Shown: positions 24,702-44,911, counted from the stretch's first letter. The stretch: 64,000 nucleotides of DNA from Desulfobacterales bacterium (GCA_015231595.1 JADGBH010000001.1:78900-142899), one strand, 5' to 3'. Notes: a model not told the origin generated them from the sequence alone. Numbers and translations are program-made.

Positions 24702-25829
24702 CTAATCGCCCATCAATAATATCCTCCAGGGTTGGTCAATAAATTGGCGCTGCGTTGTAAGGGTATATTCGTGCGAGCCTGTACATCCGTTTCGGTCTGT
24801 GGCGGTGACTGAGAACGTAAACGAACCGATCGCAGTCGGTGTGCTTGATATAACGCCTGTTTCGGTATTGAACAACAACCCAGTGGGCAGCAACCCGATG
24901 ATGCTGAATGTATACGGTGCTCTTCCCCCACTAGCATCGATGTCCTGGTTATAGACAACTCCCACTGTTCCTTGCGGAAGCTGCTGCGGCGTAAGCGTAA
25001 TGAGCGGACAGGGAAAGGTTACAGCGTCGGAATCGAGCGTAACCTGGGTTTGCGCCAGCGCTCTGCCGTTCAATACTGCGCCGGTTCGCAAGATAATCTG
25101 CTTTGCACTCAATATAGTTCCATTGAAGGTGGAGTACGTTCCGAGAGTTGCACCGCTAACACCTCCGACCTGCCAAAAGATATTCGAGGCTAGGGCTCCA
25201 CCGGTTAGTACTACCTTAATACCGGTAGCGACGCTGCCAGATGATGCGATATCAAGATTTCCAGCTATTTGGAATATCCAAACATCGTTTGCACCGCCCG
25301 AGAGAGTAACGTTTGTGTTTATTAAAACGTCGTTGCTCCATTTGTAGAGTCCAGGGGCTATTGTCAGTCCGCTGATATCTCCAGCACCCAGTCCGATGAC
25401 AGGAGCAGGGCTTACTATCCCAGCAGCGCTATTGTATGCAGTTAGCATATCGCCTACCGCGGTATCCACTAAGGTCTTGTTAGCAAGAGGCGGATTACCG
25501 GCAAAACATGTTATAGTGCCATTACCTGTATATGCTGCATCAACACCGTAGATGGTTCCAGTGATTTGCGAACACCATATTCCATCCATCTGCGCAGCAG
25601 AGCCAGGACTATTGCCAATATCCCCAGTGATAGCAGAAGTATGGCTTCCGGTCTCTGTGATCCCTGTTTCTGCCAGAATCACGAAATTACCTGCTGACAA
25701 AAGATCGACTGGGTCAGGGCCGGCCGCGAGCGCTGTAATTGCCCCAATGAAACCGAGCGCAACAAGCCCCACGCTAAGCAAAAGACTCCATCTTGTCCTC
25801 CGGTTAAAGATTTTTTTTATTTTAAACAT
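24702..25829 (-). CDS. Secreted DUF3494 (ice-binding-like) beta-solenoid protein with a C-terminal Ig-like (He_PIG-type) domain. The gene is compositionally foreign.
   Basis: Signal peptide (RRTRWSLLLSVGLVALGFIGAITALAAG). DUF3494 hallmarks: LLSAGNFVILAETGIT..ITGDIGNSPG, ..TAYNSAAG.., LTIAPGLYKWSN, DVWIFQIAGNLDIAS, NIFWQVGG, FNGTILSAKQIILRTGAVLNGRALAQTQVTLD. The tail reads GGRAPYTFSIIGLLPTGLLFNTETGVISSTPTAIGSFTFSVTATD. GGGAGAA RBS upstream of the second ATG (25829). Confidence 0.85.
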   Translation of the reverse strand: MFKIKKIFNRRTRWSLLLSVGLVALGFIGAITALAAGPDPVDLLSAGNFVILAETGITETGSHTSAITGDIGNSPGSAAQMDGIWCSQITGTIYGVDAAYTGNGTITCFAGNPPLANKTLVDTAVGDMLTAYNSAAGIVSPAPVIGLGAGDISGLTIAPGLYKWSNDVLINTNVTLSGGANDVWIFQIAGNLDIASSGSVATGIKVVLTGGALASNIFWQVGGVSGATLGTYSTFNGTILSAKQIILRTGAVLNGRALAQTQVTLDSDAVTFPCPLITLTPQQLPQGTVGVVYNQDIDASGGRAPYTFSIIGLLPTGLLFNTETGVISSTPTAIGSFTFSVTATDRNGCTGSHEYTLTTQRQFIDQPWRILLMGD

Positions 25830-26047
25830 TTTTGATTCTCCCATTAATTTTTCTTCGAATTGTTGAAAATTCCTAATACTGCAGCATCATAATTATCTAT
25901 TTATTCAATAATTCATTCCTTTGCAATAATTTTAGTTGAAAGCCGCTATTTATTGATATTTAGATCGATATATCAGTAGAATCAATGCTCTTAAAATAAC
26001 ATTTTGATTTAATCAAAAAAATGGGATTTCCTATACTATTAAATTTG

Positions 26048-28122: not shown

Positions 28123-31100
28123 CTATGCTTTCTTCACAATTCCTTCCGCTATTTTTTCTGCTGAATTACCAAATAATTCGTCCATTTGAATAAATTCAAT
28201 CAAATCATCTTTCCATTGAATGTTTTCTTGAACTAGACTTTTTATTCTTTCATATTTTCCACCGAGAGCCTTTATTTTAAAACTTAAAGAAACATTAATT
28301 TTAAACTCTATTTCAACAAGAAGTAAATATTCTATTACGTTAGGAGTATCAGGAGACGCTGAAATAATAGGTATAACAATCATTTTCCTGCCATCTCGCC
28401 TGCCTTTACCTATATAAACATTTCCTTCTCTTACAATTATTTTTTTAGTTCCTTTTAAAGTCTTATCTTTTTCAACTCTTGATACTAAGCCTTTAGATGA
28501 GCCTCTTTTATCTATAACTTCTATGGATGCATCGTCTGTTGGTTCTCCAAGAAGATTCAATCCTGAAATTTTATATAATGTTGACCCTTTTATTTCGGAT
28601 ATAATTGTTTGGATATTTTTAAGCACAATTACATTTTTATTAATAAGCTGAGATGTGCTAAAATTATAATCGGTTAATACGTCAAAAAGTATCCCTTCCA
28701 TTTTTTCGACAATTCGGCTCGTTCCTACTGTTACAGTTTTTGCTTGATGTTTTATGGCATCGATAGGCCTTGCCATATATGTAACAGCTTCACCAACACA
28801 GTCAAAAAGCTTATTAAGCATATTTAAAGGAGTTCCTTTTACGCCAAAATCAAGCTCAAAATCAGATACAGGAAGCCTTCCATAAAGGTACTTTAACAAA
28901 AGTGTAAGATCTGAAGCATCATATTTTCCCCAAAAAGCCGGGAAATGATTATTAGTTTTTTTATCCCTAAAAACACGATAAAATCTCAAAATTGTTTCTT
29001 TAAACGATTTTTCAAGTATACTTTCAAAAATATCAAGGCCTTCTTTTGTAAATTTATCAATGGTTAATTTAAGCTCATTTCTAAATCTATAAAATAATTC
29101 AGAATTTTGATTAATTGCAAGCGCCGCATAATATCCCCATAAATGACCTACCAGTGTATTTAAAATTGAAGAAAGGTGTTCTTTAACGACTGGAATTTTA
29201 AATACAGCTGCGGCATATTTATCAAATCTGTCCTCATCCTCATTTGTAATTACGATGGGAACCGCCTTATGAGCCTGAAAAATTGCAGTATCTTTAATTA
29301 AATCGTAAGTTACTCCTTCGCGCGCGCCAGCAGCACATATAATTATTAAAGGCTCTGCAGAAAGATCTATATGCTTTTTATCTTCAATGTAGTCAGATGA
29401 AATTGTTTTATAACATAATTCACTTAATTTTATTCTTATTTCATCGGAGGAGGCTTTATTTGGCCCACTTCCAGCAGCAGCCCAATAAGTTCTTGTTAAG
29501 GCATATTTTTTAGCAGATTCCTCTATTTCTTCGCTCATATTAAGGATTTTTCGCATGTGGCATGGAATTTTAATAAGTTCAGCCATTTCTGACGTAATAA
29601 AATCATCATTTCTAGTACCCGTTATTTGAGCAATATAAAGACCTAATATAGTTCCAGCAATAATTTGAGAATAAAAAGCCTTTGTTGAAGCGACTGACAT
29701 TTCAATATCTCTTCCGCTGCTTGTATAAATAACTCCATGAACTTTAAATGTAATATCTGATTCTCTTCGATTTACTATAGCAAGAGTGTAAGCACCATTT
29801 GTATTCGCCATATCAATTGTTTTATTAGTATCTGTAGTTGTTCCTGATTGAGTTATAGCTATTACAAGATTATCTTGCATACTTTTAATTTCTGAATCTT
29901 TTGACTCGCTTATTTTACCGCTTAACTCTGAAGCTTTTAAAGCAGATATATTTATACCAGAACCTGCCATATAATAATTTAAAATATCCGAACAAACAAG
30001 AGCCGCAACTCCTGCTGTTCCTTGGCCAATAAAATAAACATTTTTAATTTTTTTCTCTGTAAGGGCTGCAACTAAAGGTTTAGGAAAATTTTTCTCATTA
30101 AGTTTTATTTCAATTTTGCCTGTATCGAGTTTTGTTTTCCATCGGTTAAAAAGAGTTTTTTCTACAGAAGATGGGCTTTCAGATATTTCTTTAAAAAAAT
30201 AATGGGAAAAAGTTTGTCTATCTATATCCCTTGAAGTAATTTCAGATTTTTTTATATCCTTTATTTCCATGTTAAAAGGCGTTCCATCATACCACATGGA
30301 TTTTACGCTGCCTTCTTGAGCAAAAGGCTTTTCATCCAATATCACTATTTGGCCTTGAATACTGCCATTTTGCCCTTCAAAAAGTTTTTCTCCTTCTAAT
30401 TTAAAAAAATAGGGAGTTTCTTCGACAAATCCATAAACTTCAGATGTAGGAATATAATGGTCATCAGCTACACCAACGAAAATAGCTTGTCCGCTGCCTC
30501 TTTGGGCTAAAAAAAGTTTACCGGGCGCAATATCTGTTTGCATAAAAATAGCGTGGGAACCTTTAAAAGCATTAACAGCCATTCTAAAAGACTCTTCTAT
30601 TGAATTTCCTTGATTTAAATATTTTTCTATTTGAAGAGGGATAATCTTTGTATCAGTAGTGATTTCAGAATCTATCCTGATTCCTTCCTCTTCTAACGAA
30701 GCTTTTAAGTCTTGATAATTATCGATATCCCCATTTAAAGATACATGGATAATATTGCTGTGAAGAGATGCTCCTTTATTGAAATCATTATCCATAGGAT
30801 GGCAATTTTCTTCAGAAATATTTCCAACCGATGCCCACCTTGTATGGGCGGCAATATTATAATGAAGATTATTACAATTTATAATAATATTAAATATTTC
30901 ATCATTTTTAATTTGATTTCTAAGAAAAGAAATATTATCGCCAAGCTTTCCTACTTCAGCTGAAACCTTATAAGTAAATGAAATGCATTTTAAAGATTCT
31001 GTTTCTTTAATTAAATTACTTAGGGATATGCTTCCATTAAGTAGAATATTATAATTCATTCGTTTATCAAAAACATCTATTAAACCCTTTTCTGTAATAA

Positions 31101-31875
31101 TATTTTGAAATTTTTCAAATTCAGCTTCTTTAATCCAAAAAAATATTGAAATGCCTGCGGAATCTCTACCTCTAACTTCAAGACGATCAATGCTATTTAA
31201 AACAGAATTAAGTCTTTTCAATATTTTTAATGACAATGGAGACACAAATTCCTTTGCGTCAAAATATAAATCATTTATTCTTTTGATATTTTCGTATAAC
31301 TCTTTTGAAAGAGCCCATTGAATATCTTTTAATAATTCAATTTTTTGATTTATTTTATTAACACTCACAGTGTTTAAAATTCCACTATTGATCGAAAGAA
31401 AGGCTTCACAACTTTGAATTGCGTTAAAAAGCATTGCCGAAACGTTTATAATTTCGTCTGATAATTCTTTATTAGGAAATATTTTTATAAAAGAATATTC
31501 TTTTTTTAATGAAAGGATAAATTCAAATAAGGTATCAAGTAAAGAGTTATCTCCTAAAAAATGATCCGAAAGATTAAAATTATCTTTAATAAATTCGTCT
31601 AATATAAGGTTTTCGCTCTGTTCATAGAGTTTACGAGCCGTCTGAATTAAAAAATTTATATCGATGGATTCATCGTGTTTTGTAGCCTGATGTTTTACGG
31701 CAATTATTCCGGCAAGACCGCAATAAAAAATATTATTGCATACAGGGAAAAAAATTATAGATTTCTCAGATACAGACTTTATATTTTTTCCTATAAAAAT
31801 TTGATAATTAAAAAATGATAATTTGTCAAAACTCCTTCGTAGAAAACTAAACATGCTATTTTTTTTTGTTTTCAT
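28123..31875 (-). CDS. Giant GlmS-like glutamine amidotransferase (class II) / tandem-SIS sugar-phosphate isomerase family protein, 1250 aa
   Basis: GATase-II motifs: CGLAGIIAV (Cys at residue 52), RLEVRGRDSAGISI, AHTRWASVG, NGDIDNY. SIS motifs: GQGTAGVAALV, VIAITQSGTTTDT. The GlmS isomerase-site equivalents EDKKH and HQAKTVTVG are present. It is about twice the length of the canonical GlmS, which is about 610 aa. Confidence 0.75.
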   Translation of the reverse strand: MKTKKNSMFSFLRRSFDKLSFFNYQIFIGKNIKSVSEKSIIFFPVCNNIFYCGLAGIIAVKHQATKHDESIDINFLIQTARKLYEQSENLILDEFIKDNFNLSDHFLGDNSLLDTLFEFILSLKKEYSFIKIFPNKELSDEIINVSAMLFNAIQSCEAFLSINSGILNTVSVNKINQKIELLKDIQWALSKELYENIKRINDLYFDAKEFVSPLSLKILKRLNSVLNSIDRLEVRGRDSAGISIFFWIKEAEFEKFQNIITEKGLIDVFDKRMNYNILLNGSISLSNLIKETESLKCISFTYKVSAEVGKLGDNISFLRNQIKNDEIFNIIINCNNLHYNIAAHTRWASVGNISEENCHPMDNDFNKGASLHSNIIHVSLNGDIDNYQDLKASLEEEGIRIDSEITTDTKIIPLQIEKYLNQGNSIEESFRMAVNAFKGSHAIFMQTDIAPGKLFLAQRGSGQAIFVGVADDHYIPTSEVYGFVEETPYFFKLEGEKLFEGQNGSIQGQIVILDEKPFAQEGSVKSMWYDGTPFNMEIKDIKKSEITSRDIDRQTFSHYFFKEISESPSSVEKTLFNRWKTKLDTGKIEIKLNEKNFPKPLVAALTEKKIKNVYFIGQGTAGVAALVCSDILNYYMAGSGINISALKASELSGKISESKDSEIKSMQDNLVIAITQSGTTTDTNKTIDMANTNGAYTLAIVNRRESDITFKVHGVIYTSSGRDIEMSVASTKAFYSQIIAGTILGLYIAQITGTRNDDFITSEMAELIKIPCHMRKILNMSEEIEESAKKYALTRTYWAAAGSGPNKASSDEIRIKLSELCYKTISSDYIEDKKHIDLSAEPLIIICAAGAREGVTYDLIKDTAIFQAHKAVPIVITNEDEDRFDKYAAAVFKIPVVKEHLSSILNTLVGHLWGYYAALAINQNSELFYRFRNELKLTIDKFTKEGLDIFESILEKSFKETILRFYRVFRDKKTNNHFPAFWGKYDASDLTLLLKYLYGRLPVSDFELDFGVKGTPLNMLNKLFDCVGEAVTYMARPIDAIKHQAKTVTVGTSRIVEKMEGILFDVLTDYNFSTSQLINKNVIVLKNIQTIISEIKGSTLYKISGLNLLGEPTDDASIEVIDKRGSSKGLVSRVEKDKTLKGTKKIIVREGNVYIGKGRRDGRKMIVIPIISASPDTPNVIEYLLLVEIEFKINVSLSFKIKALGGKYERIKSLVQENIQWKDDLIEFIQMDELFGNSAEKIAEGIVKKA

Positions 31876-39715: not shown

Positions 39716-39852
39716 AAATAATCCTTTAATAACTTAATAACTTCTATCTTGATGAATTGTGAGCAATGTGCAAATATTAGTTGAAAATTTTTATACTATT
39801 TAAGCCATAATTCTAATTGAGTAAACGAATATTTTTAAAGTGTCAAAAATTT

Positions 39853-40794
39853 ATGAAAACTATTTTTATCAAAAATATTAATTTAGGTGAATTTATTGAT
39901 GATATTTTCTTTTTATCAGAAAGAAAAATATCCCAAAAAAAAGATGGTAATAATTATGCAACCCTTACACTGTCTGATAAAACAGGCAATATTAAAGGAG
40001 TAATCTGGGAAAACTCTGAAACAATTCTCAATGGAATAAACGCAGGTTCTGTTGTCAATGTAAAAGGAAGTGTAAGTGAATATTCAGGATCTCTTCAAAT
40101 AATAGTTAAATCCCTTGAAAAAATTCCTATAGAATCTGCTAACCCTTATGATTATCTGCCTGTAACAAATAAAAATATTGACGGAATGTTTGAAAGAATA
40201 CTAAAGCTTATTGGAACAATACAAAATGAATATTTATCTAAACTTTTAAATTCTTTTTTTTCTAATCATGATTTTGCATCAAAATTTAAAACAGCTCCAG
40301 CAGCAAAAAAAATGCACCATGCTTATCTTGGGGGCCTACTTGAACATTCCCTTTCTACAGCTATGCTTGTTGATAAAATAGGCGTTCATTATAATGGCAT
40401 AGATCGAGACCTTTTGCTTACAGGTGCTATACTTCATGATATTGGCAAAGTAAGGGAGTTTGAATACAAATTCAACATAGACTATTCTGATGAAGGCAGA
40501 CTTCTTAGCCATATAGTAATAGGTTTAGAAATAGTTAGTGACAAAATAAAAGAGATTCAAAATTTTCCGTCCGAACTTGCTACAAAACTTAAACATCTAA
40601 TTATAAGCCATCATGGTCATAAAGAATTTGGATCCCCTGAACCTCCAAAAACACTTGAAGCCCTTCTACTTTACTATCTTGATGAAATTGATTCAAAAAT
40701 AAATGGAGTACGCGAATTTATAGCATCAGAAGATTCAAATGAAAAATGGACTTCTTATCATAGGCTTATGGATAGATATTTTTATAAAAAATAA
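39853..40794 (+). CDS. OB-fold + HD-domain 3'-5' exoribonuclease (YhaM-like)
   Basis: OB-fold N-terminus (ATLTLSDKTGNIKGVIWE) and HD-domain motifs HHAYLGGLLEHS, LHDIGK, ISHHG. The start was moved from TTG 39817 to ATG 39853. Confidence 0.8.
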   Translation: MKTIFIKNINLGEFIDDIFFLSERKISQKKDGNNYATLTLSDKTGNIKGVIWENSETILNGINAGSVVNVKGSVSEYSGSLQIIVKSLEKIPIESANPYDYLPVTNKNIDGMFERILKLIGTIQNEYLSKLLNSFFSNHDFASKFKTAPAAKKMHHAYLGGLLEHSLSTAMLVDKIGVHYNGIDRDLLLTGAILHDIGKVREFEYKFNIDYSDEGRLLSHIVIGLEIVSDKIKEIQNFPSELATKLKHLIISHHGHKEFGSPEPPKTLEALLLYYLDEIDSKINGVREFIASEDSNEKWTSYHRLMDRYFYKK

Positions 40795-40953: not shown

Positions 40954-41622
40954 ATGTTTATAACACTTGAAGGGATAGAAGGTTCAGGAAAGACTACGCA
41001 AGTTAAAAATATACTTGAATTTATGTCTATGAAAGGCATAGAAGCGATAAGAACTCAGGAACCTGGAGGAACAAACATTGGAGGAAAAATTAGAACTCTT
41101 CTCCTTGACCCTGAGAATAAAGATATACATCCAATGACTGAGTTATTATTGTATTTTGCTGATAGAACCCAGCATTACACAGAATTTATTAAGCCTTTGC
41201 TTCAAAAAGGAAAAGCAGTTGTTTGTGACAGATTCTTTGAATCTACGCTCGCATATCAGGGGTATGCAAGGGGTATGGATATAGACTTGATTAAATATTT
41301 ACATAAAATTATATTTGGAGGCATAAAGCCAGACATTACATTACTTTTTGATCTTCCAGCTGAAATAGGTTTAACAAGAGCATTAAATGACATCAAAGCT
41401 GGGAATAGACCAAAAAATGAAGCTCGTTTTGAAAAAGAGAATATTTTATTCCACGAAAAAGTTAGAAATGGTTATCTCGAAATATCAAGGCTTGAGCCAG
41501 ATAGAATTAAAGTAATTAACGCTTTATTAGATAAAAATAAGGTAAAAGACGAAATTTTTAATGTATTATCTTTAAAATTAGATACTAACAATGACGGCAC
41601 TAAAAAGAAAAAAAATAATTAG
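40954..41622 (+). CDS. tmk: Thymidylate kinase
   Basis: MFITLEGIEGSGKTTQ P-loop, a DRF.ST.AYQG motif and a LID region. Confidence 0.93.
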   Translation: MFITLEGIEGSGKTTQVKNILEFMSMKGIEAIRTQEPGGTNIGGKIRTLLLDPENKDIHPMTELLLYFADRTQHYTEFIKPLLQKGKAVVCDRFFESTLAYQGYARGMDIDLIKYLHKIIFGGIKPDITLLFDLPAEIGLTRALNDIKAGNRPKNEARFEKENILFHEKVRNGYLEISRLEPDRIKVINALLDKNKVKDEIFNVLSLKLDTNNDGTKKKKNN

Positions 41623-41632
41623 GACAAAAAAA

Positions 41633-43903
41633 ATGAAAAAATCTCTTTTAGACCATATTGGTAATACTCCACTTATAGAAATAAAAAAACTTAATCCAAA
41701 TCCAAATGTGAAAATATTTGCTAAATTAGAATATTTTAATCCTGGAGGTTCAATAAAAGACAGAGCTGCCATGTACATGATTGATGATGGTGAAAAAGCA
41801 GGTAAATTAACTCATAAAAAAATTGTGCTTGAAGCTACAAGTGGAAATACAGGAATAGGTCTTGCTCTTGTATGCTCGATAAAAGGCTATAAAATGCTTT
41901 TCGCCATGTCAGAATCTGCAAGCATTGAGCGACAAAAAATATTAAAAGCAAGGGGATCTGAAATTCTGCTAACTCCGGGGCATCTTGGTACGGACGGAGC
42001 GATTGAAGAAGTATATAGACTTGCAAGGGAATACCCTGATACATATTTCATGACCGATCAATATAATAATGAAGCTAATTGGAAAGCTCACTATTATGGA
42101 ACAGCAGAAGAAATATGGGCTCAAACAAATGGAACGGTTTCAATGATAATTGCAACAATGGGAACAACAGGAACCATAATGGGTCTTTCAAGAAGGTTTA
42201 AAGAATACAATCCAGATATAAAAATAATAGGAGTTGAACCTTATCTTGGCCATAAAATACAAGGCCTTAAAAACATGAAAGAAGCTTACTGTCCAGGTCT
42301 TTATAATAAAAAATATCTTGATGAAAAAATCAATATTGAAGATGAAAATGCTTTTGAAATGACAAGGCGTCTTGCTAAAGAAGAAGGCATTTTTGTAGGA
42401 ATGAGCAGCGGAGCTGCTATGTTCATAGCTGCTAAACAAGCCGAACAATTAGATAGTGGCGTTATTGTTACAATATTTCCAGACAGCGGAGAACGATATT
42501 TAAGCACCACCCTTTTTACTGAAAAAACCAAAGCTGAAATAAAAATTCAAAATACGCTTACACGAAATAAAGAACCTTTTCATCCAATTATACCTGGAAA
42601 AGTTTCAGTTTATTCCTGCGGGCCTACAGCTCACGCAAGAATGAATCCTGGAGAATGCAGAAGAATAGTATTTTCAGACATTTTGTGCAGATATCTTGAA
42701 TATAGAGGGTATTCAGTCAATCAAATAATGAATATAACTGATGTCGATGATAAAACAATTTTAGGATCAGAAAAGGAAGGTCTAAGCCTTTCTGAATTCA
42801 CTGAAAAAAATATAGAAACATTTAAAAAAGATTTAGCACTATTAAACATTAAACAAGCCTCAAAATATCCTAAAACAAGCGAACATATAGATGCTATGGT
42901 TTCTTTGGCTGAAAAGCTATTTGAAAAAGGTTTTGCTTATGAAAAACTTCATTCCCTTTATTTCAATATTTCCAAATTTCAAGAATATGGCAAATTATCC
43001 GGAATTGATTTAAACAAAATAAAATCAGGATTAACAATAGACTTAGACGAATATGAAAAAGATAACCCCAAAGATTTTACTCTTCTTAAAAGATCAAAAT
43101 TATCAGAACTTAAACGGGGTATCTATACAAAAACAAAATGGGGCAATGTTAGGGCTTCATGGCATATTCAATGTGTTGCCATGTCAATGCAGTACCTTGG
43201 AGAAACATTCGATATTCATACAAGCGCAAGAAAACTTATATTTCCCCACAATGAGAATGAAATAGCAATAGCTAAAGCTGTTACAGGAAAGCCTCTTGCT
43301 AAATACTGGATGCATTGCGATAGTGTATTAATACCTGATGAAAACCAAAATATAACTTTAGATGACCTTATTCAAAAAGGATATTCCGCAAAAACAATCA
43401 GATATTGGCTGCTTTCAACCCATTATAGCAAATCAATGACTTTTTCCTTAGATAGAATAGAAAGCTCCCAAAATGCCCTTGAAAGAATTAATACTTGCAT
43501 AAAAAGGCTAAAAAGCATAAAAACTACAGCTTCAAATTTTTCTGAGCTTAATCAACTGATTTATGACATAAAACAGGGATTTATTTTATCAATGGATGAT
43601 GATTTAAATATTTCTGGAGCTTTGGCTTCAACATTTAAGTCCATAAAAACAATAAACGCCTTGATAACAAAGCAAAAACTAAGCTGCAATGATGCAGATA
43701 AACTTATAGATTGTTTTAAAAGTATAGACTCTGTTTTAAATGTATTTTCTTTTGAAGAAGAAATATCTGATAACAAAACTCTCGAATTAATAAAACAAAG
43801 AAATAAAGCAAGGGCAAATAAAAATTGGGAACTTGCAGATAAAATAAAAGATGAACTAACACTACTTGGGATAAAAATTCATGACAAAAAAACGAGTGAA
43901 TGA
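41633..43903 (+). CDS. Fusion protein: an N-terminal PLP-dependent cysteine synthase (CysK/CysM family) joined to a C-terminal CysRS-like domain with degenerate HIGH and KMSKS motifs
   Basis: CysK part: NPGGSIKDRAA (PLP Lys), TSGNTGIGLA, GTTGTIMG, SSGAAM, FPDSGERYLST.LF. CysRS part starts at IKIQNTLTRNKEPF..VYSCGPT and is colinear with E. coli CysRS through WHIQC, FPHNENE and the C-terminal DDLNISGAL and QRNKARANKNWELADKIKDEL. AGGA RBS upstream of ATG 41633. Confidence 0.8.
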   Translation: MKKSLLDHIGNTPLIEIKKLNPNPNVKIFAKLEYFNPGGSIKDRAAMYMIDDGEKAGKLTHKKIVLEATSGNTGIGLALVCSIKGYKMLFAMSESASIERQKILKARGSEILLTPGHLGTDGAIEEVYRLAREYPDTYFMTDQYNNEANWKAHYYGTAEEIWAQTNGTVSMIIATMGTTGTIMGLSRRFKEYNPDIKIIGVEPYLGHKIQGLKNMKEAYCPGLYNKKYLDEKINIEDENAFEMTRRLAKEEGIFVGMSSGAAMFIAAKQAEQLDSGVIVTIFPDSGERYLSTTLFTEKTKAEIKIQNTLTRNKEPFHPIIPGKVSVYSCGPTAHARMNPGECRRIVFSDILCRYLEYRGYSVNQIMNITDVDDKTILGSEKEGLSLSEFTEKNIETFKKDLALLNIKQASKYPKTSEHIDAMVSLAEKLFEKGFAYEKLHSLYFNISKFQEYGKLSGIDLNKIKSGLTIDLDEYEKDNPKDFTLLKRSKLSELKRGIYTKTKWGNVRASWHIQCVAMSMQYLGETFDIHTSARKLIFPHNENEIAIAKAVTGKPLAKYWMHCDSVLIPDENQNITLDDLIQKGYSAKTIRYWLLSTHYSKSMTFSLDRIESSQNALERINTCIKRLKSIKTTASNFSELNQLIYDIKQGFILSMDDDLNISGALASTFKSIKTINALITKQKLSCNDADKLIDCFKSIDSVLNVFSFEEEISDNKTLELIKQRNKARANKNWELADKIKDELTLLGIKIHDKKTSE

Positions 43904-43915
43904 GGTAATTACTTT

Positions 43916-44911
43916 ATGATGCCAGTTTATTTTCCATTTACAACGATTTCAAACTATTCTTTAAAGCTTCTTTTATCAGCATTTAAAAAAGTGATGGTCT
44001 ATCAGCCTTCTAAAAATATACCTGAACCTCTTTTAAATCTTGAAAAACAAGGATATTTATACTTAAAAATCCCATTTAGCGGAGATGAAAAACAACTTGA
44101 TATAGCTGAAAAAGATTTTAAATTCTGGTTAAACTCCCACAAAGGAACAGATACAAATCTTCTAAAAAACATAAAAAATAGTCAGCCATTTGTTGGTGAA
44201 TCTTCAGCTTTATCTATAAAAAACCTAATTTCACATTATGATAAAAAAGCTGATAAAACACAAACAGCAACATCTGAAATTGCTCTATTCTATCCGAGAC
44301 TTTTTCTTAAAATAACTCAAGATTTCGATATAAACATGGACGAAATTAATAATAAACTTATTCTCTATAACAAAATGGAACAAGATATTATTCACGATAT
44401 TACCTTTGAGAAGGACGATCTAAAAACTATCCCTGATTTATCTCTTATTCCGGATAATTCTAAAGATTTTATGATAAAAGAACGGATAGAAGCATTAAGC
44501 TCATTAATTATGAATGATTCTGATTTGAGCGGTATCTATATTACAACAAGCAAAAATGCTTTGGAATACATACTTGATAAATTTCCAGATGCTGAAAAAA
44601 TTTTTAAAATAACGAATCTTCCTGTATATACAGACACCAATGATGAACTTATTTCATGGCAAAATTCTTTACACGAATACCTTGAAAAGGTATCAAATTC
44701 GGAGGACATAAAAAGCGTAAAAAAATTTATACTGCAACCGCCCAAATCTAAAGCTGCTTCCAATTTTTCTTTAACTTCTTATGTTATTCCAAATAATAAC
44801 CCTTATTATGTTTTCGAAAAATTTACCCCAACTCGTGATAAACAACCAAATAATGAAAAAATAAGAAATACTATAATATGCCTTTTAGATTTAAACAAAG
44901 ATTCAATATAG
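43916..44911 (+). CDS. Hypothetical protein (no domain recognised)
   Basis: 331-aa ORF, 12 nt after the fusion gene and 15 nt before the exporter gene. Coding-like composition, and no motif that I can name. Confidence 0.55.
   Translation: MMPVYFPFTTISNYSLKLLLSAFKKVMVYQPSKNIPEPLLNLEKQGYLYLKIPFSGDEKQLDIAEKDFKFWLNSHKGTDTNLLKNIKNSQPFVGESSALSIKNLISHYDKKADKTQTATSEIALFYPRLFLKITQDFDINMDEINNKLILYNKMEQDIIHDITFEKDDLKTIPDLSLIPDNSKDFMIKERIEALSSLIMNDSDLSGIYITTSKNALEYILDKFPDAEKIFKITNLPVYTDTNDELISWQNSLHEYLEKVSNSEDIKSVKKFILQPPKSKAASNFSLTSYVIPNNNPYYVFEKFTPTRDKQPNNEKIRNTIICLLDLNKDSI

Follow-up and report, generated by a model that had tools for sequence, protein, structure and literature searches.

What is gained when a cysteine synthase is joined to a cysteinyl-tRNA synthetase (CysRS) that lacks the catalytic signatures of its class? 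This question is raised by a gene on a 64,000-nucleotide (nt) stretch of DNA from a Desulfobacterales bacterium (JADGBH010000001.1:78900-142899), which is referred to below as the window and from whose first letter all coordinates are counted. The gene occupies a single uninterrupted open reading frame (ORF; 41591/41633-43903, forward strand) and encodes a CysM-type cysteine synthase dependent on pyridoxal phosphate (PLP) followed by a CysRS-derived body, together called the fusion here. Sequence comparisons indicate that this is a genuine, strongly conserved two-part protein that is as yet undescribed. Its CysRS-like part is without the ATP-site signatures and is predicted to be no longer capable of activating cysteine with ATP, while its amino-acid pocket is untouched.

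Domain architecture of the fusion

The ATG at 41633 is the likely start codon, since it lies 8 nt 3' of an AGGA and 10 nt 3' of the stop codon of tmk, and since the deposited NCBI protein of 756 amino acids (aa; P0001) is 100% identical to the ORF read from this position. The original prediction for this locus had described a gene packed closely behind tmk, in which a complete-looking CysK/CysM-type PLP domain is joined to a full-length CysRS-like body. Pfam and NCBIfam both agree with this description; a HMMER run with the PALP, tRNA-synt_1e, and DALR_2 models recovered all three domains (Table 1; DALR_2 above its cut-off), and every motif quoted in the prediction was found at its coordinates. 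A fourth Pfam domain, CysS_C (residues 718-754), scored 22.4 bits, slightly below the cut-off of 23, and is recorded for most of the homologues. At the E-values obtained, chance resemblance is not an issue. The CysRS-like body begins at I303, which corresponds to residue 2 of E. coli CysRS in the alignments, and reads IKIQNTL from nt 42539, approximately where its start had been predicted. The short linker in front of it is the least conserved stretch of the protein, with 0 of 8 columns invariant in the family alignment.

Residues 1-296 constitute an intact CysM-type PLP cysteine synthase, in which all of the predicted signatures are present: the PLP lysine K42 (nt 41756-41758, within GGSIKDRAA at 41744-41770), the TSGNTG substrate (asparagine) loop (residues 69-74; TSGNTGIGLA, 41837-41866), the glycine-rich phosphate loop in its CysM-like form GTTGT (residues 177-181; 42161-42175), and SSGA, whose serine contacts the pyridine nitrogen (residues 258-261; SSGAAM, 42404-42421). 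In NCBIfam, the domain scored 354.7 bits with the cysKM subfamily model, above the cut-off of 344.15, and remained below the cut-offs of both equivalogs, cysM (351.1 versus 394.2) and cysK (309.5 versus 350.95), being nearer to CysM than to CysK. The nearest solved structures are the cysteine synthases 9nld and E. coli CysM 2bht (CysM match, E = 3e-69). These four signatures are shared with CysM/CysK sulfhydrylases of O-acetylserine (or O-phosphoserine). The fusion differs from them in its scores below both equivalog cut-offs and in its C-terminus, which is not free but extended by 460 residues. These features mark the N-terminal part as a PLP-dependent cysteine synthase of the CysM type with a complete catalytic site.

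For the CysRS-like part, residue positions are given in E. coli CysRS numbering unless a residue of the window protein is named, and the family statistics refer to 120 fusions, which were compared with a set of 75 canonical CysRS. Among solved CysRS, phmmer matched 8qhp (E = 5e-92) and E. coli 1li5 (E = 3e-69), with identities of 33-35%. The domain order, i.e. Rossmann, CP1, SC fold, helical bundle, and anticodon domain, is the same as in canonical CysRS (E. coli 1LI5/1U0B and archaeal-type 8QHP), and the Zn ligands, the cysteine pocket, and the anticodon residues are common to both. The Zn ligands Cys28, Cys209, His234, and Glu238, which had been predicted to be conserved, align with C329, C514, H539, and E543 of the window protein (the latter two in FPHNENE, 43241-43261) and are found in 120, 118, 120, and 106 of the 120 family members, respectively. 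Residues G29, T68, and W205 of the cysteine pocket, together with H206, are invariant, and T31, D69, H224, H235, E236, and N237 are also retained in the family. In the C-terminal part, R423, D436, R439, G446, and D451 are conserved in canonical CysRS and the fusion family alike and, together with DALR_2, bear out the predicted retention of the anticodon-binding helices.

Class I synthetases hold ATP and stabilize the adenylate through HIGH, KMSKS, and related motifs, and these are the elements that have been lost here. In a hidden Markov model alignment to solved structures, NPGE (338-341) falls opposite HLGH/HIGH, as had been proposed from a by-eye alignment. The loss of HIGH holds for the window protein, but the first His survives in most family members, which have H-x-G-E: of the 120 members, 98 have H at position 37, 16 have D, and 3 have N (Q is also seen), and at position 40, the second His/Asn of HIGH, 118 have Glu, which is followed by C41-R42-R43. 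Similarly, KMSKS had been thought to be replaced by LIPDE (566-570); KMSKS is indeed absent, but the alignment places it 4-5 residues further downstream, opposite N571-T575 (phmmer) or opposite N571-N573 and a 5-residue deletion (MAFFT), and no KMSKS-like sequence was found in the window protein by either alignment. Across the family, this region (266-270) has the consensus K-V-D-E-Q, is variable, and contains indels, and constraint has been lost, relative to the canonical set, at M267, S270, and N273, i.e. exactly at the KMSKS loop. Other changes are conserved, namely G225-G226-G227-x-D229 to T-S-S-R-E, G201 to V, G204 to S, E208 to Q, and Q241 to I. The fusion is thus set apart from canonical CysRS by H-x-G-E (NPGE here), T-S-S-R-E, the lack of KMSKS, the Glu208 to Gln change, the fused synthase, and its membership in a separate clade (see below). 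The window protein lies at the degenerate end of the family, with N at position 37, N at position 235, and a shortened loop. ATP-dependent activation is predicted to be lost because the second His of HIGH has become Glu, GGG-x-D has become T-S-S-R-E, and the KMSKS loop is variable.

An AlphaFold2 model of the fusion, which was built with 66 sequences, has a mean predicted local distance difference test score (pLDDT) of 83, with a value of approximately 90 in the CysRS-like body; scores are low in the linker (287-301) and at residues 206-223, which form the mobile loop of the PLP domain. In Foldseek, the model matched CysRS 8qhp and 1li5 with a TM score of 0.89 (root-mean-square deviation of 2.7-3.1 Å) and O-acetylserine sulfhydrylases with TM scores of 0.84-0.86. 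As modelled, both folds are intact.

Table 1. Features of the fusion gene and of its conserved neighbours in the window
Feature	Position	Strand	Evidence
Fusion gene, 756 codons: CysM-type cysteine synthase and CysRS-derived predicted pseudo-synthetase	41633..43903	+	ORF, Pfam, NCBIfam, phmmer, P0001
PLP domain (PALP, fold-type II), residues 6-284	41648..42484	+	Pfam PALP, E = 5e-70; NCBIfam cysKM; solved structures
Short linker, approximately residues 297-302 (EKTKAE)	42521..42538	+	Alignments; pLDDT <50 at residues 287-301
CysRS-like Rossmann catalytic domain with CP1 insertion, residues 316-613	42578..43471	+	Pfam tRNA-synt_1e, E = 5e-75; Foldseek TM 0.89
C329, equivalent to Zn ligand Cys28 of E. 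coli CysRS	42617..42619	+	Alignment; 120/120 family members
HIGH remnant N338-P-G-E341; family consensus H-x-G-E, then conserved C-R-R	42644..42655	+	Alignments
C514, equivalent to Zn ligand Cys209, in W510-H-I-Q-C (WHIQC, 43160-43174); canonical Glu208 replaced by Gln	43172..43174	+	Alignments
HTSARKLIFPHNENE: canonical H-GGG-x-D adenosine-pocket motif replaced; family consensus H-TSS-R-E	43217..43261	+	Alignments
Site of the lost KMSKS loop: E570-N-Q-N573, then 5-residue deletion; family K-V-D-E-Q, variable	43340..43351	+	Alignments
DALR_2 helical domain (650-705) and C-terminal anticodon-binding domain (718-754), R..AR..K.W..AD.I...L...GI...D	43580..43894	+	Pfam
tmk, thymidylate kinase	40954..41622	+	Pfam Thymidylate_kin, E = 5e-51
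orfX, 331 aa, conserved partner gene	43916..44911	+	Synteny; 31% identity to D. magnum neighbour, E = 2e-52
OB-fold (tRNA_anti-codon) and HD protein, upstream of tmk	39817-40794	+	Homologue in 60/82 loci

Conservation and relatives of the fusion

Each of the best 120 database matches is a fusion, 757-774 aa long, in which the domain set is unchanged, and identity to the query is 66-70%. They originate from Desulfobacterales, Desulfococcaceae, and Desulfonema magnum and, wherever named, are called cysteine--tRNA ligase or cysteinyl-tRNA synthetase; this name is explained by a marginal pass of the NCBIfam cysS equivalog TIGR00435 (348.9 bits versus a cut-off of 340). Profiling across Desulfobacterota, which had been suggested with the original prediction, revealed widespread carriers of the Desulfobacterales type: in a GTDB scan with one genome per species, 443 stretches encode a relative, and the best 80 of these, which were examined, belong to Desulfobacterales-type genomes. 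Carriers include the complete D. magnum chromosome (CP061800.1), D. limicola, Desulfosudis oleivorans, Desulfatirhabdium, strain N47, and Eth-SRB1/2; a fusion is also encoded on two MAG (metagenome-assembled genome) chromosomes, CP070768.1 and CP070652.1. The fusion is carried by no fewer than 80 related species, and a figure of several hundred is probable. Two separate fusion loci (L017 and L021) were found in one MAG, AB_1215_Bin_118, which could reflect either a duplication or a mixed bin. The window itself appears to derive from a divergent low-GC lineage, because its G+C content of 31.6% is low for Desulfobacterales and the nearest relative of its fusion is only 70% identical.

ORF, synteny, and selection counts were made on 82 orthologous genes or loci. 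A sequencing frameshift that artificially joins two genes had been named as a finding that would undo the prediction, and separate PALP and CysRS-like genes, only 2-4 nt apart, do occur in other lineages. The ORF is, however, intact in 82 of 82 orthologues, and the same in-frame architecture with its short linker is found in these independent loci, the complete D. magnum chromosome among them, and also in over 120 protein clusters from different sources, so that the fusion is genuine; an assembly or frameshift artefact was rejected and has practically no probability left.

Rates of non-synonymous to synonymous substitution (dN/dS; Nei-Gojobori, 60 pairs with 80-97% identity) were 0.090 for the PLP domain, 0.100 for the N-terminal Rossmann half, 0.078 for CP1, 0.090 for the C-terminal Rossmann half, and 0.16-0.24 for the SC fold and the helical and C-terminal domains. 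The dead catalytic core is therefore as constrained as the live PLP domain. These values bear directly on the view that the CysRS-like part is a decaying relic without a ligand, which would merely aid folding or oligomerization of the synthase. The loss of the catalytic motifs and the further decay seen in relatives (see below) would agree with such a relic, but the core dN/dS of 0.08-0.10, which equals that of the PLP domain, rules it out as a decaying one, and 46-59 invariant columns per approximately 100 residues in the Rossmann-N and CP1 segments, Zn ligands that are essentially invariant in the family, and the intact ORFs all speak against it. We consider this explanation highly improbable.

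An exhaustive search of 50%-identity representatives yielded only a handful of further full-length fusion clusters, and across the wider clade of PALP-linked CysRS paralogues the ATP-site motifs are graded from intact-looking to fully decayed. Intact-looking motifs (HLGN/HIGL and KMSRS) are present in P0122 and P0280, both from Deltaproteobacteria MAGs; P0121 has QLGE at HIGH and Ser in place of C209; and P0127 (Desulfovibrio ferrophilus), P0128, and P0130 have lost C28, C209, and KMSKS altogether. The D. ferrophilus fusion (AP017378.1; L169 8001-10334) encodes 777 aa and is annotated as 'cysteine synthase'. Stand-alone relatives carry the marks of the clade, i.e. R42-R43, H-T-S-G, and the CP1 motif DNPxDFTLLKR...WGNVRP, and four of four that were examined (P0144, P0287, P0142, and P0147) are encoded directly behind a PALP gene. 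In a metagenome control of 80 CysRS loci, all seven sequences with clade marks are fused to a PLP domain, whereas a PALP gene adjoins only 1 of the 73 canonical cysS loci. Members of the clade are thus fused to, or lie directly behind, a PALP gene in every case examined. A neighbour-joining tree groups every PALP-linked sequence in a single clade that is separate from canonical CysRS (bootstrap 80/100), although long-branch effects are possible with this method. A fusion from a Nanoarchaeota MAG (P0124; L170 8001-10307), which was also among the fusion clusters and in which a cysteine synthase is joined to a fully canonical CysRS (HIGN and KMSKS), nests among the canonical enzymes and is therefore independent.

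When the window protein is compared with the most decayed fusions (P0127, P0128, and P0130), the PLP domains are 57-61% identical, CP1 and the C-terminal anticodon domain 40-48% and 32-41%, respectively, and the Rossmann halves only 20-33%; the anticodon-domain motif is present even in these proteins. The putative RNA-contacting modules thus outlast the catalytic site, and it is these modules and the synthase that persist longest. At one locus of the split type (L085 6553-7293), a ThiF-family (E1-like) gene directly follows the PALP/CysRS-like pair, a possible sign of a CysO/CysM-type link to a sulfur carrier in that lineage.

Possible roles of the CysRS-derived part

We tentatively favour the reading that the fusion is a cysteine synthase equipped with a non-catalytic CysRS-derived module, which would bind cysteine and/or tRNA-Cys and couple cysteine synthesis to their status. 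The PLP domain would make free cysteine, the dead synthetase would act as the binding module, and the coupling would amount to feedback or demand sensing, as with HisZ on HisG or the HisRS-like domain of GCN2; the product of orfX, the gene downstream, would probably be a working partner, and Cys-tRNA-Cys for translation would be supplied by a separate housekeeping CysRS. In O-acetylserine sulfhydrylases the TSGNTG loop binds the free alpha-carboxylate, and its presence in the fusion therefore favours a free amino-acid substrate and disfavours aminoacyl-tRNA chemistry. Of the two functional suggestions that had accompanied the original prediction, a cysteine-sensing or channelling module looks more plausible than SepCysS-like chemistry on tRNA.

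HisZ and AsnA are among the few synthetase paralogues that serve the metabolism of their own amino acid instead of aminoacylation. The fusion would be a CysRS-derived, class I member of this group and, to our knowledge, the first paralogue to be joined to the biosynthetic enzyme with its tRNA modules retained. HisZ, which is without adenylation activity, mediates histidine feedback on HisG (PMC9437257). As a synthetase paralogue attached to a biosynthetic enzyme of its own amino acid, it offers the closest analogy for the mode of action, and the two share the loss of adenylation motifs, the retention of the amino-acid pocket, and the association by fusion or adjacency. HisZ is, however, a class II protein and a separate subunit without an anticodon domain, whereas the present protein is of class I, is fused, and keeps its tRNA modules.

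Several points weigh against the proposed sensing module. The sensing role itself is wholly our inference, and selection on the Rossmann core that is as strong as on an active enzyme would fit an unrecognized catalytic role as well. The TIGR00435 score lies above the cut-off for cysS. The Zn ligands have also been lost in the most decayed relatives, so that cysteine sensing cannot be the function of the clade as a whole, although tRNA binding could be. The AlphaFold2 model has a predicted TM score of 0.59, which leaves the mutual orientation of the domains undefined, and contains no confident contact between them. Furthermore, no canonical cysS came to light in the fusion-carrying DNA searched: with E. 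coli CysRS as the tblastn query, only the fusion and no second cysS was seen in the window and in the 82 loci with their approximately 1.2 Mb of flanking DNA, a stretch that is uninformative genome-wide; cluster look-ups of 20 canonical CysRS representatives named one deltaproteobacterial sequence only (P0226), from which a seeded search recovered only Syntrophales-type CysRS and none from a fusion-carrying contig; and proteins from the ends of the window led to no adjoining part of the contig.

The last point, together with the TIGR00435 score, the strong purifying selection, the position of the gene amid the housekeeping genes metG, holB, and tmk, and the existence of clade relatives with HIGN/HIGL and KMSRS that look potentially active, would suit a CysRS that still works with unorthodox residues, i.e. 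a bifunctional synthase/CysRS that is possibly the sole CysRS of its host. Against this, the positions that stabilize adenylation are unconstrained (H, D, N, or Q at residue 37; a variable KMSKS region with indels and, here, the 5-residue deletion), Glu at position 40 would repel the phosphates of ATP, and the related D. ferrophilus fusion is also devoid of the Zn cysteines. Mukai et al. described an 'additional' cysS copy in Desulfobacterales (PMC5389517), and an ordinary cysS is therefore implied in this order. A working CysRS is accordingly very unlikely.

A possible but doubtful reading takes its lead from the RNA-contacting modules: the CysRS-derived module would dock tRNA-Cys onto the cysteine synthase through CP1 and the anticodon domain, with the orfX product as a third component, and would function either as a charging sensor that gates synthesis, in a bacterial version of GCN2 or T-box logic, or as a second, SepCysS-independent coupling of thiol chemistry to tRNA-Cys. 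In GCN2, an inactive HisRS-like domain binds tRNA and controls the attached kinase. The GCN2 domain differs in that it comes from eukaryotes, acts on a kinase, and accepts uncharged tRNAs in general; tRNA-dependent regulation of the fusion is a hypothesis by analogy.

If the PLP domain acted on an aminoacyl moiety while the CysRS body docks tRNA-Cys, the fusion would perform tRNA-scaffolded thiol chemistry, e.g. conversion of Sep- or Ser-tRNA-Cys to Cys-tRNA-Cys or persulfidation of Cys-tRNA-Cys, in the manner of SepCysS or of the CARS persulfide synthase. The anticodon-binding and CP1 modules are kept throughout the clade, tRNA-dependent cysteine synthesis exists in bacteria (PMC5424206), and CARS has been reported to make cysteine persulfide with PLP (PMC10655014). 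The PLP domain, however, is of fold-type II, keeps TSGNTG, and scores as an ordinary CysK/CysM, and the modelled domains show no confident contact. Of the CARS lysines K73, K76, K266, and K269 only K73 is kept, and a CARS-type persulfide synthase site was rejected, since three of the four required lysines are absent. The SepRS/SepCysS pathway likewise links a PLP enzyme, tRNA-Cys, and cysteine formation, but SepCysS belongs to fold-type I and uses the Sep-tRNA-Cys that class II SepRS makes; membership of the fusion in this type was rejected on the basis of its PALP fold-type II domain and because no SepRS was seen in the window. In addition, neither a tRNA gene nor a SepRS was found in the 64-kb window or in the 26 loci scanned. 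Chemistry on tRNA is decidedly unlikely on this evidence.

Rather than having become a binding module, the kept Zn/cysteine site might support a new catalysis, in which the remodelled pocket (E40, C41, R42-R43, and T-S-S-R-E) would bind a partner other than ATP, and Zn-bound cysteine or Cys-tRNA-Cys would be used to build or cleave a cysteine conjugate. Parallels would be an MshC-like or cyclodipeptide-synthase-like transferase, or the release of cysteine from a sulfur-carrier adduct of the CysO/CysM type. The replacements at the ATP site are themselves conserved and not random, the core dN/dS is as low as for an enzyme, cyclodipeptide synthases are class-I-like folds that use aminoacyl-tRNA without ATP motifs, and the ThiF-family gene follows the split pair in L085. 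MshC, itself a paralogue of CysRS, uses a different acceptor (PMC2922099). However, C41 is not conserved clade-wide (C, L, I, or Y), a ThiF neighbour was seen at a single one of 5 split loci and at none of the Desulfobacterales fusions, decayed relatives lose the Zn ligands yet keep the fusion, and the NCBIfam MshC model (TIGR03447) gave 135.2 bits versus a cut-off of 485.1. A new catalytic role is therefore regarded as unlikely.

An equally unlikely role is that of a channelling or buffering scaffold, in which the dead synthetase would capture newly made cysteine on its Zn site and hand it to a consumer such as the housekeeping CysRS or a cysteine desulfurase, or would keep free cysteine low in a sulfidic, metal-rich cell. 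An intact cysteine pocket tethered to the synthase by approximately six residues is consistent with this proposal, and the independent canonical fusion of the Nanoarchaeota MAG implies that selection has brought the two activities together on more than one occasion. Nevertheless, a single stoichiometric binding site is a poor buffer, and the proposal provides no explanation for the retention of CP1 and the anticodon domain where the Zn site decays.

That no characterized example was known, as stated with the original prediction, agrees with our full-text literature searches, which turned up no account of either the fusion or the PALP-linked CysRS clade. Among CysRS-derived proteins, a 2022 review of paralogous synthetases names CysRS* and MshC alone (PMC9437257). 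Like the fusion, both are derived from CysRS and have specialized roles outside standard Cys-tRNA-Cys synthesis; both are without an anticodon-binding domain, and MshC is ATP-dependent (PMC2922099, PMC5389517, PMC9437257). MshC, the Cys:GlcN-Ins ligase, has approximately 410 aa and no fusion to a cysteine synthase, whereas the window protein has an anticodon domain; on this ground and by its TIGR03447 score, the latter was rejected as a member of MshC. CysRS*, the opal-suppressor CysRS, occurs in Desulfobacterales beside selC*/selB* (PMC5389517) and not beside a PALP gene, and it likewise is not fused to a cysteine synthase; the anticodon domain, tmk and orfX as neighbours, and the lack of a tRNA gene in the regions scanned exclude the fusion from this group.

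Synthetase paralogues of this type are mechanistically instructive, and the fusion would add a new class I example. Its family is common in Desulfobacterales, the main complete-oxidizing sulfate reducers of marine sediments, and the graded series of split operon, intact-motif fusion, dead ATP site, and dead Zn site is suited to studying how a synthetase turns into a pseudo-enzyme. The annotation 'cysteine--tRNA ligase' can mislead metabolic reconstruction; TIGR00435 is used as a single-copy marker, and marker-gene counting could be affected where this is so.

The surrounding locus

The recurrent gene order is surE, the HD-OB protein, tmk, the fusion, and orfX, with lptD, holB, a PSP1 gene, and metG on the opposite strand near the locus. 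On the same strand as the fusion, tmk is adjacent upstream in 66 of the 75 loci with room upstream, and orfX is adjacent in 58 of 65 loci. The gaps between tmk, the fusion, and orfX are 10-15 nt long, and no terminator-like site or Rfam element was found between them; the three genes therefore look co-transcribed. Neither an Rfam match nor a riboswitch or T-box was found in the 64-kb window.

The gene downstream of the fusion had been regarded as an orphan ORF, a view that its conserved position as orfX contradicts; the polysaccharide exporter that had been noted behind it is present in the window but is not conserved (1 of 82 loci). The true start of orfX is probably the second ATG, at 43919, and its N-terminus, which is under strong conservation, reads MKPIYFPFTYIS in the family. 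No match to orfX was obtained in Pfam, NCBIfam, or PDB (including a profile search of PDB sequences) or by word-index search, and a single-sequence AlphaFold model has a pLDDT of 37. The gene also follows the KMSKS-less metagenome fusions L089, L091, and L098; it is absent beside KMSKS-less L092, the split or motif-intact forms, and the D. ferrophilus gene, which also has no tmk beside it.

Two further genes on the reverse strand of the window are of note. One (28123-31875) encodes a 1250-aa glutamine-amidotransferase and SIS protein, which is GlmS-like but approximately twice the usual length. The other (24702-25844) encodes a protein with an Ice_binding-like domain and a He_PIG Ig domain and lies beside two family-2 glycosyltransferases.

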